A DNA stretch of 64,000 bases from an uncultured Gemmatimonadaceae bacterium (GTDB taxonomy: Bacteria > Gemmatimonadota > Gemmatimonadetes > Gemmatimonadales > Gemmatimonadaceae). Of the stretch, positions 17,782 to 26,700 are shown piece by piece (the first letter of the stretch is position 1; each line of letters opens with the position of its first letter). Position numbers: made by a program. The DNA lies in assembly GCA_963751275.1 (NCBI GenBank), contig CAVVTZ010000007.1:224001-288000 (forward strand), in the 5' to 3' direction.

Positions 17782-20700
17782 CGCGCCCTCGTCGGCCACG
17801 ATCAGCGTGCGCTCGAACTGTCCCGTGTTCTCGGCGTTGATGCGGAAATACGTCGACAGCTCCATCGGGGCGCGCACGCCCGGCGGTACGTAGCAGAACG
17901 AACCATCGCTGAACACCGCGGAGTTGAGCGCCGCGAAGAAATTGTCGCTCGCGGGCACCACGCTGCCCAGATACTTCTGCACGAGGTCGCCGTGCTCGCG
18001 CACCGCCTCGGAGAAGGAGCAGAAGATGATCCCGTGCTTCGCGAGTTCTTCCTTGTAGCTCGTGCCTACCGAGACGGAATCGAACACCGCGTCCACGGCG
18101 ACCCCCGCGAGCATCTTCTGTTCGCTGAGCGAGATGCCGAGTTTGTTGTAGGTCTCGAGGAGCTTGGGATCGACCTCATCGAGGCTGCCGAGCGGCTTCT
18201 TGGTGCGCGGCGCCGAGTAGTAATAGAGGTTCTGATAGTCGATCGCCGGGTACTTCACGTTCGACCAGTGCGGCTCGGTGAGCGTGACCCAGCGGCGGAA
18301 CGCCTTGAGGCGCCATTCGAGCAGCCACGCCGGCTCACTTTTCTTCGCCGAGATCTGGCGGACCGTCTCTTCGGTGAGGCCGCGCGGGATCGTATCGGCT
18401 TCGATGTCGGTGACGAAGCCGTACTCGTACTCTTTGTTGACGAGCGATTCGATCTGACTGCTCATACGGGCTCCGGATCCGCGCACGCGTGGCGTTGGTG
18501 TCTTAAGCCTAGCGATTCTATCGGAATTGTCAACGTCGCAGCTTCGCGGACTTCCCCTGCGTAATGTCTTGCGGCGGAATGCGTTACGTGGATGGCGCCG
18601 GGTAAGGTGTTTCCTGACGCAGTGCGGCATTTCTCCCTTGCGCGCCATGCCGCACTGCGGTATAATCCGCCTGTGAACACTCGCCACATCACCCGCTACG
18701 GGAGCCGCAAGCTGTACGACAGCTCCGCCCGGCAGTACGTGTCGCTCGATGACCTCGCGCGCCACGTACGGGCCGGGGAACACCTGCGGGTGATCGACAA
18801 GAAGACGGGGCACGATGTCACCGCCCAAACGCTCGCGCTGGTGCTGTACGAGCAGGCGCGCCAGGGCGAGCAGCTCCTCACGAGTGAACTGTTGCACGAC
18901 GTGATCCGCTCGGGGATCGGGCAGCTGCAGGAAAAGGTCGATGAGATCGTCACCGCCGGCGTCGATCGGGTGAAGCCGCTGCTCCATGCCCGCGAAGAGA
19001 TGGCGCGGCTGCGTGCCGGGATCGCGGGGATCGAGAAGTCGCTGAGGGAGTTCGCGAAGGAGACGAAGAGCGGACCTCGGCGCACAACTCCCGGCGCCCG
19101 GCAACGGCGGACGGCGAAACGCAGGAAACGGGAAGCCTAGATGATCCCGGTGATGTGACACAGGCACGCACTCGGGATGAACCACTTACCTGCTGAGAGG
19201 AACCAGTTATGAAAAAGACCAACGCATTCGCACCCAAGGCGATCATCGCCAAGACGGCCGAGATGGCGCAGGAGCGCGCGCTGCAGGTGCAGGAGACGGC
19301 GCAGAACGTATGGTTCGCCGGACTGGGCGCGCTCGCGCTCGCCGAGGACCGCAGCGGCAAGCTGTTCAAGGAGCTGGTGAAGAAGGGCGAGGCCGTGGAT
19401 CTCAAGAACAAGAAGATCTTCAGCGGCATGGTGAAGGACGTCGAGGCCCGCATCGAGTTCGCGAAGGAGACCATGGTGGACGCGACCAGCGGCACGTACG
19501 AGAAGGTGAGCGGCGGCCTGGAGAACGGCATGGCGAGCGTGATGCACACGTTCGGCGTTCCCACCCGCAATGAGATCAAGACGCTGACCAAGAAGGTCGA
19601 CCTGCTCACGCAGAGCGTCGACAAGAAGTCCAAGCGGGCGATCAGCGCCGGCACCAAGCGGGTGCGTAAGGCGACCGCCGCCGCGCGCAGCTAGCAACCG
19701 ACGGGAGCGAGATGCGCCGCATGCGCCGGCACGCCAGCCGCAAGATCGGGCTGGCGCTTGCCGGCGGCGGTCCGGAGGGCGCCGTGTACGAGATCGGCGC
19801 CCTGCGGGCCCTCGAGGAAGCGCTGGACGGGATCGACTTCAATGATCTCGACAGCTATGTGGGGGTGAGCGCCGGCTCGTTCGTCGCCGCCCTCCTCGCG
19901 AACGACATCCCCATCTCGCAGCTCGTGCGGATGATCGTCACGCACGAGCCCGACGAGCAGCCTTTCCACTTCGAGAAGTTCTTCGCGCCGGCATACGGCG
20001 AGCTCGCGCGGCGCGGCCTCATGCTGCCCGGCCTCGTCGCGGAATCGATCCTGAAATTCGCACAGAAGCCCGGCGACCAGAGTCTGCGGGAGGCGTTCAC
20101 GCTGCTCGGCCGCGCGATCCCCGTTGGACTGTTCGACAACGATCCGATCCGCCGGTATCTCGAGCGGACCTTCGCGCGCAAGCACCGCACGAACGATTTC
20201 CGGAAGCTGCGCCGCAAACTGATCGTGGTCGCGGCGGATCTCGACTCCGGCCGGCCGATCCTGTTCGGCGGCAAGGGATGGGACCACGTGCCCATCTCGA
20301 AGGCCGTGCAGGCGAGCACGGCACTGCCCGGCCTCTATCCGCCGGTGCAGATCGATGGCTCCGATTGCGTGGACGGCGTGCTGCTGCGTACGGTGCACGC
20401 CTCGGTGGCGTTCGAGCAGGGCGTGGAACTGCTGCTGTGCGTGAACCCGATCGTGCCCACGGATGTCCGGCAGGCGGTGGGGCAGGGCCTCATGCCGAGC
20501 GGCATCCTCACGCGCCGCGGGCTGCCGTCGGTACTGTCACAGACGTTCCGTACGCTCATCCATTCGCGGCTGGAGGTGGGATTGTCGCGCTACGCGACGC
20601 ATTTCCCCGGCGCGGACCTCGTGCTCTTCGAGCCGGGGCGGGACGAGTACGCGATGTTCTTCTCGAACATGTTCAGCTTCTCGTCGCGGAAGGACGTGTG

Positions 20701-23700: not shown

Positions 23701-26700
23701 AACGGTCGAGCAGATTGCGCAGCTCGTCGGTGATCGGCTTGGGGAGGATGTCCTCGCGCAGGCTCAGGATCTGTCCGAGCTTGATGTACGTGGGGCCGAG
23801 CAGTTCGAGCCGCCGCCGCAACTGCACGGGGAACGGCTGGTCGCGCAGGTCGCGGCGGATGAACGGCCGCACGAGGAAGGCGCCTGTGCCGGCGATCGCG
23901 CGCAACAGATAGCGCGGATCACGCGCATCGCGCAGGCTGTGCGAGTACGAGACCAGTCCGCCCGCGAGCAGCGCGGTCGTCTGGTGCACGGTCACCACGA
24001 AGCGGCGCGCGAGGCTCGGCGCCCGCGTGTCCGTCATGAACGTGAAGCCCGGCGGCGCGCCCTCCGCCGCGGTCGCCGTCATGTCAGCGATTCCGCCCGT
24101 ACTTCTCGTGCGAGCTCACCCACTCGAGCGATGAGATCGCCGCGGCCAGCGAGATCTCGCCGGCGAGCACGACCCCGGCGATGATCTCGGCCAGCTTGTG
24201 CGCCTTCCCCTTGCCCACGCAGCCCAGGATCTCGAGGCACTCGCGCTGGGTGGGGAGCGCCGTGCCGCCGCCGTGCGTGGCGACGATGAGCGACGGGATG
24301 GTGATCGAGATGTACAGGTCGCGCGCCGGCGTCAGCTCCGAGTAGATGATGCCGGCGGCGCCCTCGGAGACGTTCGCCACGTCCTGCCCGGTGGCGATGA
24401 ACATCGCGGTGATGCCGTTCGCCGAGTGGAGCCCGTTGTTGTTGGCCCCGGAGAGCAGCGTGCCGACGTTCGCGACGCCGCCGTGATAGGTCAGGCTCTC
24501 CGGCTCCACCCGCAGTTCGCTCATCAGCACTTCGCGCGGGATCGTCGCCTCGGCCGTCACGCGCTTGCCGCGCGTGCGCATGACATTCACCTGCGAGGCT
24601 TTCTTGTCCGTGGCGAAATTCGATTCGAGGAAGAAGCGGCGGATCGTGGGCACCTGCTCCAGGATCCAGCTGCACGCGGCGAAGGTGGCGCGCCCCGTCA
24701 TGTTCTGCCCGGCGGCGTCGCCCGTGCTGAAGTTGAAGCGCAGGTACGCGAACTTGCTCGCGAGATAGATGTCGATGTAGAGCATCTTCGCGACGCTGGA
24801 GGTGGCCTCCGCCTCCTTCGCGATCTCCGGCAGATGCGCGTTCACCCACGTGCGGAACTCGCGCGCCTCGCGCGCGGAATCGAAGATGAACACCGGCGCG
24901 CGCTGCATGCAGTCGTCGCTCACCGTGCACGTCACGCCGCCCGACAGGTTGAGCACCTTCATGCCGCGGTTGTAACTCGCGACGAGCGTGCCCTCCGTGG
25001 TGGCGAGCGGGATGAGGAACTCGCCCTGCGCGTGCTCGCCGTGCACCATCAGCGGGCCGGCGAGGCCGAGCGGCACCTGCGCGACGCCAATGAAGTTCTC
25101 GATGTTCCCGCGCGTCAGCTCCGGATCGAACGACGGCTTGTTGACGTGCTTCAGATCCTTGCCGCTCGCCTTGGCGAGGAAGCGGTGCCGTTCGGTGATG
25201 ATCTTCGGCGAATAGTTGAGCGCCGCGTCCTTCTCGTACGGGATGGAGGTGCGCTTGGTCTGCGCATCGTGGAGCGCGTCCTTCACCGCGATCTCGAGCT
25301 CGCCGAAGCCGCTCGCTTCCACGAGCAGCTTGATCTCGTGCGACCCGTGCGTGAGCGGGCGCGCCTTGGCGTGCAGGTGCGCGATCTCCTTGAGCGGGAA
25401 GGGCACGGCCTGCTGCGGCGTCAGGTCCGCCGCTGCCATGTCGCGGCCGGCGCCGAACTGCACGCGCACGTTCTGGAGCGGCACCTCATCCCCATCCACG
25501 CGCAAGCGCACGAGACGCGTCAGCGTCACGTCGCTCAGCCGGTTGCGCAGGCTGAACGCGAATCCGTCAGCGGTGTTCTCCAGCGAACCGAAGGTGTACA
25601 ATTGCCGCAGCAGGAGCGAAGGGATCTTCATGGGTCCGCGGACGGTCAGGTCGGCGGCCGCGAGACCCGAATGTGGGGGCGGCGCCGGACGGTGAGTATG
25701 GGCAGTCGCCCTACACGGTGCAGGGCGACTGCCGATACGCGTACGCTACCGTGCGACCCGCGAGCGGGGAAGAGCGCGCTACCGGAAGACCAGGTAGAGC
25801 ACCAGCAGGATGCTGGCGATCGCCGCGCCGATGAGCATCGGCATCAGCGGCAGGCGCCGCGAACCGTCCACCGGATATTTCCCGCCCTCCATCGTGACGG
25901 CGCGCTGCGCGAGCTGCGTGCTGCGGCGGCTGAACGCGTCGTCATCGTGGTCCTCGAACTGCACCGGGCGCACGCCCGGGGGCAGCGGCTGGCGCGTGAA
26001 GGTGAAGATCGTGTCGCCCACCTGGATCTGGTCACCCTCCACCAGGATCTTGGGGTCCTTCGCGGGCTGGTTGTTGATCTTCGTGCCGGACGAACCCATC
26101 GAGTAGATGACGAATTCGCCCGCTTCGCCGCGCACGTCCGCGTGGAAGCGCGACACGGTGGGATCCTTGAGCACGATGCTGCAGCCGATCTCGCGCCCGA
26201 TCTGCACGACGCGCTTGCGCAGCGTGTAGCCCTTTCGGCTCGAGGTGTCGATCAGGTGTGCATCGGCCGGCGGCTTCGCGGCGGCGGGGCGCGCCGTGGC
26301 GGCGTCCTTCAGGAAGACGAATCGCGCGTTGCCCGCCGCGATCACATCACCCGAATTGATCGGTGTGCCCGATGGCGGCACCTGCTTGCCGCTCACGACC
26401 ACCACATTCTGCGGCGACGCGGGCACGACGGCCCCCGTTCCATCGATCGATCCGCGGACCTTGAAATGCCGCGCCGCCAGGTCCAGTCCCGCGAGACGCC
26501 ACTCCGCCTGCGATCCGCTCCCGACCATCAACTCGCCGTTGAATTCGCGCGGGTTGCCATCGAGGTCGGGCTTTCCTTCGAGCTCAAGAACGGGCATTGG
26601 TCCTTACCAGGGAAGTCAGGTCGGCATGTCGGTCATCGCCCGGCGCAACAAGGCCGCCGCAAGCGTGACTTTATAGTAATTGTCGCGCAACGGCCGTGCA

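Follow-up and report, generated by a model that had tools for sequence, protein, structure and literature searches.

The closest described system is the pathway in which FcrA, a family of homologs of class I HMG-CoA reductase (HMGR) described in 2025 (Grossi et al., ISME J, PMC11948995), is paired with the acyltransferase WS/DGAT. According to the main text of that paper the Promineifilum enzyme (Pb-FcrA) converts long-chain acyl-CoA (C14 and longer) to fatty alcohol with 2 NADPH, the assayed FcrA did not reduce HMG-CoA, and FcrA without WS/DGAT is explained by ether lipids rather than by a second wax synthase. Synthesis of bacterial wax esters and triacylglycerol (TAG) is scored almost wholly by WS/DGAT.

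Among enzymes of the PlsC-like fold, neutral-lipid precedents are DIESL (PMC10482677) and slr2103 (PMC12048435). As described in the accessible text of these reports, DIESL/TMEM68 is an animal TAG synthase with a His/Asp dyad (His130/Asp136). The cyanobacterial MFAT enzymes slr2103/A0918 and the plant PES enzymes (PMC12048435, PMC12223511), formerly annotated as PlsC, esterify a long-chain alcohol, act on phytol, DAG and plastoquinol, and share a lipid-droplet location with ABC1 kinases; the accessible text reports no link to FcrA.

Layout of the locus

The window, a stretch of 64,000 nucleotides from an uncultured Gemmatimonadaceae bacterium (GCA_963751275.1, contig CAVVTZ010000007.1, positions 224,001 to 288,000), contains the six genes of the locus in two convergent runs: phaR, phasin and patatin on one strand, and reductase, ABC1 kinase and acyltransferase (AT) on the other (Table 1). 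The ABC1 gene starts 1 nt past the fcrA stop and ends 4 nt ahead of the AT start. The genome is 83% complete, which bears on every absence reported from it. All six genes were present where the earlier note had placed them. Its genes and their linkage thus stood, but not its statement that the catalytic motifs are kept (see below), nor its claim of novelty in the literature, which was wrong because the FcrA family had been described in 2025 (PMC11948995).

Table 1. Features of the locus (positions in the window)
Feature	Position	Strand	Evidence
Putative PhaR operator, upstream copy, palindromic	18615..18629	.	inverted-repeat arm and one-mismatch motif match
Sigma-70-like phaR promoter	18638..18666	+	-35 18638-18643, -10 18661-18666, 17-nt spacer
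Putative operator TGCCGCA-N-TGCGGYA	18648-18662		within phaR promoter spacer
PhaR-type regulator	18673..19140	+	PF07879 E 1.4e-18
Phasin, PhaI/PhaF-type granule coat protein	19209..19694	+	PF05597 E 1.1e-24
Patatin-like lipase	19712..20965	+	PF01734 E 2.1e-25
PlsC/GPAT-fold acyltransferase (AT), candidate wax ester synthase	21231..22416	-	PF01553 E 6.4e-8
ABC1/UbiB/AarF atypical kinase-like protein	22421..24082	-	PF03109 E 7.7e-59
FcrA fatty acyl-CoA reductase, class I HMGR homolog	24084..25631	-	PF00368 E 9.5e-127
Putative Lad domain of FcrA, N-terminal	about 25272-25613	-	PF25653 E 4e-33

An extra base at 22304-22306 causes a frameshift in the AT gene, some 37 codons past its start. The base is missing from related contigs in three of the four runs, and the frameshift is probably an assembly error. 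This frameshift, the likely phaR start (18673) and the operator were missed by the earlier note.

Identity of the reductase

By the test of family membership made here, the 'HMG-CoA reductase' of the locus is almost certainly an FcrA fatty acyl-CoA reductase. It aligns with 6hr7 with the E-value reported before (1.6e-81 here, 2e-81 in the earlier note), not over its full length as had been stated but over residues 125-513 only. The extra N-terminal domain reported previously was found at residues 7-120 as PF25653 (E 4e-33), which, judging from its position and from the Promineifilum ortholog, appears to be the Lad domain of the halobacterial/Promineifilum group of FcrA.

The class I HMGR catalytic residues are retained (E213, K343, D417, H508), whereas the HMG pocket is altered to the FcrA signature E336/A387/W504, a change hidden by the earlier statement on kept motifs. 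Among 201 aligned close relatives, the window copy included, Glu replaces Ser684 of HMGR at position 336 in all; at position 387 the HMG-binding Lys is replaced by a small residue in all (Ala in the window copy, otherwise Ala, Ser or Gly), and at position 504 the bulky Trp stands for Leu862 in 200. The three positions correspond, with a constant offset of 24, to Glu360, Gly411 and Trp528 of PMC11948995, whose main text prints the HMG-binding lysine as Lys795; alignment to 1dq8 gives Lys735. The Promineifilum ortholog, 65% identical to the window FcrA, has the same seven residues, and an HMGR from a Streptomyces mevalonate operon retains S and K at the pocket positions. A single-sequence structure model of FcrA (pLDDT 36.6) was too poor for use in checking for an elongated substrate pocket, a trait of FcrA.

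Compared with the class I HMGRs 6hr7 and 1dq8, the protein thus has the same fold family and catalytic E/K/D/H, with the NADPH-site motif mostly retained, but differs by Ser684/Lys735/Leu862 (human numbering) to Glu/Ala/Trp, by the extra Lad domain, and by belonging to a genome (83% complete) in which no mevalonate pathway was found. With the pathway described in the main text of PMC11948995 it shares the reductase family, the Lad domain, the catalytic residues, the pocket signature and the absence of the other mevalonate genes; the difference is that no WS/DGAT was detected in this genome and that a PlsC-fold acyltransferase occupies its slot.

Fold and motifs of the acyltransferase

AT is 77% identical to an intact ortholog (locus L081), whose structure model (pLDDT 91) matched PlsC (5kym; Foldseek E 5e-6) and GPATs. 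By VIA the model aligned with GPAT1 with Z 13.2 (rmsd 4.0, 234 aligned) and with PlsC with Z 12.0 (rmsd 4.5, 196 aligned). The modelled fold and the catalytic His place AT in the GPAT/PlsC acyltransferase superfamily. His63 and Asp71 are invariant. They belong to the motif NHSGxxxPxD, found in 127 of 127 aligned rows, with His and Asp eight positions apart (seven between). The motif of canonical PlsC (LPAAT) is HX4D, and AT was accordingly not classed with these enzymes. Neither is it a WS/DGAT: PF03007 and PF06974 are absent, PF01553 is the only domain in 21 of 21 members, and the predicted fold is that of GPAT/PlsC.

A Pfam search of AT gave no match to DAGAT (PF03982), and searching solved structures by sequence gave a chance match only; in an Atlas cluster neighbouring AT (score 0.94), 75% of the members have DAGAT. 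No DGAT2, DIESL or MFAT entry was among the fold-search matches, an absence that excludes nothing. Fusions of AT or WS/DGAT with FcrA were not found among 150 representatives. By description (PMC12048435, accessible text), AT would share with slr2103/A0918 and PES the esterification of a long-chain alcohol. By description it can also be compared with DIESL/TMEM68 (PMC10482677, accessible text), which has a PlsC-like fold, a His/Asp dyad and a neutral storage lipid made independently of the canonical enzymes; the spacing of the dyad differs, His130/Asp136 in DIESL against seven intervening residues in AT.

Distribution of AT and WS/DGAT

Linkage was counted in the best 80 FcrA loci and in the 36 of them that span 21 kb or more. 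Neighbours of FcrA were ABC1 (55 of the 80 loci, 28 of the 36), phasin (25 and 15), patatin (25 and 16) and PhaR (22 and 14). The 36-locus figures are near those of the earlier note and uphold the recurrent linkage. Either next in line after ABC1 or no more than 10 kb away, 19 of the 80 loci have WS/DGAT and nine have AT, and no locus has both.

For the genomes of the best 80 loci (78 genomes, as for the other samples mostly incomplete MAGs), AT matches of at least 365 bits were taken as orthologs and those of at most 107 bits as paralogs. WS/DGAT alone was present in 60, AT alone in 14, both in one and neither in three (Fisher p about 1e-11, a value overstated by kinship). A PF06974 match in genome G193 was not scored as WS/DGAT, being partial, weak (E 6e-4) and interrupted by a stop. 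In the window's own genome (83% complete) neither Pfam nor a profile built from 19 relatives detected a WS/DGAT. In the FcrA tree the AT/WS state changes nine times, at least five of the changes being forced by starred branches; shuffling the label gives 13.1 changes against these nine, which shows it to be clustered.

In 251 genomes of the window's own phylum Lad-FcrA occurred in 16, eight with WS/DGAT only and eight with AT only; in the four remaining genomes with AT, an FcrA that has no Lad domain lies some 2.9 kb away from it. All eight WS/DGAT genomes of this sample belong to one genus.

Seen from the side of AT, a set of 80 AT loci contained ABC1 in 78, FcrA in 63, patatin and phasin in 56 each, and WS/DGAT in none. 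In a distant AT clade, which includes cultured Hymenobacter, 49 of 50 genomes have a gene of the HMGR/FcrA family, and 30 of the 30 checked show the full Lad-FcrA signature; the background frequency of the Lad domain in that phylum is 17 in 400 genomes. WS/DGAT accompanied AT in seven of 50 distant-clade and one of 29 near-clade AT genomes. AT is also accompanied by a lipase gene and a phasin-like gene, even where the lipase belongs to another family. In a Bacteroidota sample AT was present in only five of 15 Lad-FcrA genomes tested, and WS/DGAT lay near Lad-FcrA in only one of 17 loci whose neighbourhoods were searched; FcrA thus also works without either.

The ABC1 protein

The ABC1 protein belongs to the ABC1 family (PF03109) and has the motifs of that family. 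It was not accepted as UbiB, since it scored below both curated cut-offs (295 against 488 bits and 227 against 667 bits). The main text of PMC11948995 contains none of the words ABC1, UbiB, phasin, patatin or kinase.

A candidate wax ester module

We propose that the locus encodes a module for neutral-lipid (wax ester) storage, a reading to which we assign a probability of roughly 0.6. FcrA would turn long-chain acyl-CoA into fatty alcohol at the cost of 2 NADPH, and AT would join the alcohol and a second acyl chain to a wax ester, the job of WS/DGAT in sister clusters. The lipid body would be coated by phasin and the ester hydrolysed on demand by patatin, as family and context suggest. By binding the conserved palindromic operator, PhaR may repress the promoter of the phaR-phasin-patatin run to which its own gene belongs. 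In the weakest step, drawn by analogy with cyanoglobule ABC1 kinases, the ABC1 protein might act at the membrane or on the lipid-body surface as an ATP-dependent helper of the acyltransferase step. The position of its gene and its complementary distribution with WS/DGAT make AT a probable wax ester synthase; because WS/DGAT is bifunctional, this distribution does not tell a wax synthase from a DGAT or other ester synthase.

It is conceivable, though unlikely, that FcrA is correctly identified while AT replaces the DGAT side and makes another neutral lipid (TAG, an acylated quinol or prenol esters), the alcohol being used elsewhere. DIESL makes TAG with a PlsC-like fold (PMC10482677), and slr2103, which is located on cyanoglobules along with ABC1 kinases, has TAG, phytyl esters and acyl-plastoquinol as products (PMC12048435, PMC12223511; accessible text in each case); the DAGAT-rich Atlas cluster and the tie of AT to ABC1, closer than that to FcrA (78 against 63 of 80 loci), point the same way. 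A pure DGAT would have no need of FcrA, however, and almost all AT genomes have FcrA, even when unlinked (12 of 12 in the own phylum and, in the distant clade, 49 of 50), where the Lad-domain backgrounds are 16/251 and 17/400.

More doubtful still are alkyl-glycerol ether lipids as the product of FcrA and AT, with AT acting like an ether-lipid-linked PlsC-like domain. The usual acceptors of the GPAT/PlsC fold are glycerol phosphates, and for ether lipids the main text of PMC11948995 pairs some FcrA with PlsC-like domains and AGPS. Ether lipids give no reason for the mutual exclusion of AT and WS/DGAT or for their shared slot, and AT is accompanied by phasin, lipase and PhaR. PF02913 proteins of the own genome have what we take to be glycolate/lactate oxidase motifs and resemble these oxidases, not AGPS, a weak test as PF02913 is too broad. 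No AGPS candidate was found at the Promineifilum locus (L052).

The reductase is already known, and what is new is a PlsC-fold AT in the WS/DGAT slot after ABC1. The earlier interpretation was right in its direction, lipid storage, but not in leaving the acyltransferase as a bystander: AT is the part unexplained in print. We lean, with some caution, towards the view that bacteria have a second wax ester synthase family besides the unrelated WS/DGAT, and that this family, AT, with its PlsC/GPAT fold, has repeatedly displaced WS/DGAT beside FcrA and ABC1 in at least five phyla. It would serve PHA-free lipid bodies with phasin, lipase and a PhaR operator, resembling the cyanoglobule set of ABC1K and a DGAT2-like enzyme. 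AT occurs in Gemmatimonadota, Acidobacteriota, Calditrichota, KSB1 and Bacteroidota (including cultured Hymenobacter and Flammeovirga).

If this is true, surveys based on WS/DGAT undercount wax-storing bacteria, the wax producers gain hundreds of genomes from soil and water (516 and 391 related stretches), a new biocatalyst is at hand, and bacterial ABC1 kinases, phasins and PhaR acquire a role on non-PHA lipid bodies. Many FcrA genomes without WS/DGAT are left unexplained in the main text of PMC11948995, and a PlsC-fold replacement would be part of the answer. The mostly open-access literature searched, including PMC10351704, PMC10699116 and the main text of PMC11948995, contained no report of AT or of an FcrA-ABC1-phasin link; the supplement of the latter (figures S9-S13, tables) may bear on it.

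The phaR-phasin-patatin run and its operator

The longest phaR reading frame opens at 18592, but PF07879 begins at its residue 33 and the predicted promoter and operator fall inside 18592-18672; GTG at 18673 is the likelier start. The PhaR and phasin scores lie below the TIGR01848 and TIGR01837 cut-offs, respectively. In the patatin the Gly-rich loop and the GxSxG and DGx motifs are present.

A perfect 13-nt inverted repeat (18618-18630 / 18647-18659) lies upstream of phaR. Allowing at most one mismatch, the operator motif has four matches in the genome, two of them at this locus; the other two are without clear lipid genes and do not suggest a wider PhaR regulon. Of 56 distinct sequences upstream of phaR, 50 have TGCCGCA no more than 150 nt ahead of the gene, a number that falls to 1.6 on shuffling, and the palindrome is probably bound by PhaR. 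Upstream of fcrA the heptamer was at background level (6 of 130), and co-regulation of the two operons is therefore unsupported.

The PhaR DNA-binding domain, the phasin and the TGC-rich operator with its GC-N3-GC core are shared with the regulation of PHA granules described in the accessible text of PMC10888616; the difference is that PHA synthase was not found here and that the granule would hold wax ester. That the run serves ordinary PHA granules, the convergent fcrA operon being an unrelated neighbour, is very improbable. The family names would fit such granules, as would the opposite strands, an operator ahead of phaR only, and a phasin within 10 kb at only 25 of the 80 FcrA loci. Against this, neither PhaC_N nor class III PhaC was found in the genome (83% complete), in line with the earlier note, and they occur in only 1 of 78 and 0 of 77 relative genomes, respectively; moreover, the genes remain linked across several rearrangements and several phyla.

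Mevalonate genes

The MEP genes DXR and IspG are present, which bears out the MEP pathway reported earlier, and, as also reported, the HMG-CoA synthase N domain was not found in this genome (83% complete). The database name, the fold family and the catalytic residues speak for a true HMGR that makes mevalonate or runs backwards in the breakdown of mevalonate or leucine, but this can practically be dismissed given the FcrA residues at all three HMG-pocket positions, the lack of HMG-CoA reduction by the assayed FcrA (PMC11948995, main text), a score under the TIGR00533 cut-off, and MEP genes without a detected HMG-CoA synthase. Loss of the pocket for the HMG carboxylate makes reverse use, which the earlier note had considered possible, unlikely; the note's preference for storage lipid over mevalonate synthesis agrees with the FcrA signature of that pocket.

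No mevalonate kinase scored above the cut-off in this genome (83% complete). The best match, below the cut-off, was rejected as galactokinase-like on a motif that we take to be that of galactokinases. The HMG-CoA synthase C domain was matched in 13 of 78 relative genomes, in every case partially and with at most 68 bits.

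Organization of the locus

Two convergent gene runs make up the studied stretch, whose GC content does not contrast with the rest of the window. One run carries the phaR, phasin and patatin genes, the other the genes of a fatty acyl-CoA reductase with an N-terminal Lad domain (FcrA), an ABC1 kinase-like protein and a PlsC/GPAT-fold acyltransferase (AT). The nearest named locus, L081 of a Gemmatimonadaceae genome, shares 80% DNA identity over ~3.7 kb, which makes a member of Gemmatimonadota the probable host.

Features of the locus and selected genes elsewhere
Feature	Position	Strand	Family or remark
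suf operon	12842-18470	-	directly upstream of phaR
PhaR-type regulator	18673..19140	+	PF07879; start likely
Phasin	19209..19694	+	PF05597
Patatin	19712..20965	+	PF01734
Acyltransferase AT	21231..22416	-	PF01553; start 4 nt past ABC1 stop
Surplus base in AT	22304-22306
ABC1 kinase-like gene	22421..24082	-	PF03109; start 1 nt past reductase stop
Reductase FcrA	24084..25631	-	PF25653 (Lad) plus PF00368; 515 residues
21-nt inverted repeat	25696-25738		between FHA gene and fcrA; possibly terminator or other hairpin
FHA-domain gene and molybdenum hydroxylase set	25779-32178		upstream of fcrA
GMC oxidoreductase, related locus	L043:18896-20545
ArsA/Get3-type ATPase, related locus	L026:16938-17999
Acyl-CoA ligase, related locus	L072:5412-7289
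GMC oxidoreductase, own genome	C2:44317-45894		67%
Acyl-CoA ligase, own genome	C9:668595-670400		47%
DUF445 gene, second-clade AT locus	L225:5825-7027
Lad-less FcrA-like gene	L183:5992-7158		53% identity

We propose that FcrA would reduce acyl-CoA to the alcohol, a chemistry with a basis in print (PMC11948995, accessible part), and that AT would act as a wax synthase (probability about 0.6). The phasin would coat the lipid body, the patatin may serve turnover, and ABC1 may have a helper role.

A single surplus base interrupts AT, whose reading frame is unbroken in intact orthologs. Related contigs, which come from relatives and not from the window's own strain, lack this base in three of four sequencing runs; the fourth has no cover there. 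Frameshifts also seem to divide the genes sufC, sufD and sufS, which points to indel errors of this assembly. As these nearby suf genes look affected too, the AT frameshift is likely an assembly error.

The molybdenum hydroxylase set has three subunits (FAD, Mo and 2Fe-2S) and could serve aldehyde oxidation or reflect mere synteny. Five or six related loci likewise have a molybdoenzyme set upstream.

Complementary distribution of AT and WS/DGAT

AT and WS/DGAT, the usual bacterial wax synthase, have a complementary distribution. Within 10 kb of FcrA, WS/DGAT was found in 19 of 80 loci, AT in nine and both in none; where present, either gene mostly sits immediately after ABC1. WS/DGAT was not found in the own genome (83% complete) by PF06974, a search that recovered 19/19 known carriers elsewhere and had no positive control in this genome, or by a profile built from 19 relatives. 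At the genome level, 78 FcrA genomes (the 80 minus L021 and L068) comprised 60 with WS/DGAT only, 14 with AT only, one with both and three with neither (Fisher p ~1e-11, kin not being independent). In the single genome with both, WS/DGAT is partial and at a contig edge, and in one of the three with neither the contig ends just past ABC1. One of the 60, G316, is flagged unpublished; the same genome stands behind tree row L029.

A quickly built maximum-likelihood FcrA tree had 83 rows; a partial sequence was removed, and rows with both, neither or untested state were unlabelled. On it the AT/WS state changes nine times, at least five of these forced by starred branches, compared with 13.1 changes for shuffled labels. 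AT and WS/DGAT were thus swapped repeatedly, with some clustering on the tree. In an even sample of 251 Gemmatimonadota genomes the Lad domain occurred in 16, eight with WS/DGAT only (one genus, two genomes also among the 78) and eight with AT only (four genera, the own genome among them). Four more AT genomes of this phylum have a Lad-less FcrA ~2.9 kb from AT, a count that covers the AT genomes of the sample. We did not find the exchange of AT and WS/DGAT reported in the openly accessible literature.

Linkage of AT to FcrA and ABC1

AT depends in its distribution on FcrA and ABC1. The best 80 of 516 AT-related stretches, many of which share genomes with another locus set of this analysis, contained ABC1 in 78, FcrA in 63, patatin in 56, phasin in 56, PhaR in 38 and WS/DGAT in none; where 5 kb was available on both sides, FcrA was present in 42 of 45 loci.

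A second AT clade (80 loci kept of 391) is clearly homologous to the window AT, at 32-40% identity. Its members come from Calditrichota, KSB1 and Bacteroidota, with cultured Hymenobacter and Flammeovirga among them. Of these 80 loci, 47 had ABC1 within 8 kb, 38 a phasin-like gene and 17 FcrA; the Hymenobacter loci have an esterase of another family nearby. A PF00368 gene was present in 49/50 second-clade genomes and WS/DGAT in 7/50, and the 30 best PF00368 loci all had the full-length Lad-FcrA signature. Two cultured strains, Hymenobacter daecheongensis DSM 21074 and H. psychrotolerans DSM 18569, carry FcrA and AT, and WS/DGAT was not found in them. The background in a Bacteroidota sample was 17 genomes with the Lad domain out of 400. 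The association is not strict: FcrA also occurs alone, since AT was present in only 5 of the 15 background Lad-FcrA genomes tested and WS/DGAT lay within ~8 kb in only one of the 17 loci; its occurrence alone is also stated in the accessible part of PMC11948995.

A DUF445 gene stands beside the AT, phasin-like and ABC1 genes in 12/80 second-clade loci. In the Bacteroidota loci L313, L315 and L305-L307, Lad-FcrA has neither AT nor WS/DGAT nearby, and in two of them it is followed by a short gene with what we take to be a HAD-like start. These genomes possibly make a third use of FcrA.

Fold and relatives of AT

PF01553 is the sole Pfam family matching AT. A structure model of the intact L081 ortholog (pLDDT 91, 127-row alignment) resembles PlsC, GPATs, PatA and LpxM (Foldseek E 5e-6 to 5kym; VIA Z 12-13, rmsd 3.5-4.5 over 196-234 residues), with an additional helical C-terminal part beyond the matched folds. 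AT has an invariant NHSGxxxPxD motif; the usual motif is the shorter HX4D.

The Atlas shows a neighbour cluster rich in DAGAT, and two kinds of neutral-lipid makers share the broad fold of AT, a likeness at fold level. According to the accessible parts of the respective papers, DIESL produces TAG (PMC10482677), and slr2103/A0918, formerly annotated PlsC, produce TAG, phytyl esters and acylated plastoquinol (PMC12048435); cyanoglobules carry slr2103 together with three ABC1 kinases (PMC12223511). That AT is a DGAT or another ester synthase is an unlikely reading, though one to keep in mind, and we regard ether lipids as decidedly doubtful; a wax synthase is the function we favour.

The phaR operator

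Two copies of the palindrome TGCCGCA-N-TGCGGYA precede phaR, one inside the spacer of a sigma-70-like promoter, and this placement likely moves the phaR start to 18673. Of 56 distinct sequences, 50 had the operator core in the 150 nt upstream of phaR, versus 1.6 in shuffles; before phasin, patatin and fcrA it occurred only at background level. The palindrome agrees with the PhaR box, described as TGC-rich with GC-N3-GC in the accessible part of PMC10888616.

No PHA synthase was found in the own genome (83% complete); PhaC_N occurred in 1/78 related genomes and class III PhaC in 0/77. The operator suggests that PhaR may be autoregulated without any PHA synthase, and a chance union with PHA genes is improbable.

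The reductase belongs to FcrA

In an alignment with 1dq8 and 6hr7 the window reductase retains the catalytic Glu, Lys, Asp and His, and its HMG pocket is altered. This pocket and the WS/DGAT neighbours underlie its reading as an acyl-CoA to alcohol reductase. FcrA uses NADPH to reduce acyl-CoA of at least 14 carbons and fails to reduce HMG-CoA; its markers are Glu360, Gly411 and Trp528, alongside catalytic Glu236, Lys367, Asp441 and His532 (Grossi et al. 2025, PMC11948995, accessible part). The markers correspond to E336, A387 and W504 of the window protein, the catalytic residues to E213, K343, D417 and H508. All seven are alike in a Promineifilum ortholog with 65% identity, which belongs to the genus of the assayed enzyme and is a different protein. 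The alignment of 201 sequences (from the window, 80 loci and 120 proteins) shows Glu at 336 and one of Ala, Ser and Gly at 387 throughout, and Trp at 504 in 200. By its sequence, the window reductase is assigned to FcrA.

A true HMGR is highly improbable: a Streptomyces HMGR of a mevalonate operon, unlike the window reductase, retains Ser and Lys at the pocket positions, and in the own genome (83% complete) DXR and IspG are present and no HMG-CoA synthase was found. In related genomes, the HMG-CoA synthase C-domain gave matches in 13/78, all of them partial (at most 68 bits).

Two features are invariant in 201/201 sequences: DAAGQNM (residues 305-311), a variant of the NADPH-site motif, and His383, which lies one turn away from where the HMG-binding Lys was lost. 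The consulted sections of PMC11948995 mention neither. Lad residues 19-104 weakly match PF19906, the C-glycoside deglycosidase beta subunit family (E 3.5e-4, below cut-off), and an evolutionary link is possible.

Fusions and further neighbours

A C-terminal APH/EcKL kinase-like domain is present on 42 of 150 FcrA/HMGR-core representatives (P0121-P0270). In the 15 such proteins examined, Phe stands in place of the Trp throughout, and 14 retain the Glu of FcrA. Through this fusion FcrA would be tied a second time, and independently, to an atypical kinase fold, which is perhaps a kinase of fatty alcohols; the word 'kinase' is absent from the main text of PMC11948995. Other FcrA-like fusions (P0132, P0135, P0140, P0145, P0147, P0184, P0190) involve FadD with or without ACP, PilZ, a response regulator receiver, AfsA hotdog, DUF3419 and acyl-CoA-binding protein.

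Near the cluster, a GMC oxidoreductase (candidate fatty alcohol oxidase) occurs in 20/80 loci, an ArsA/Get3-type ATPase in 15/80 and an acyl-CoA ligase in 9/80. The own genome (83% complete) has the first and last of these away from the cluster, and no ArsA-type match was found in it. A Lad-less FcrA-like gene on an Alteromonas plasmid, adjoining siderophore-uptake genes, retains the Trp and has Ala in place of the Glu.
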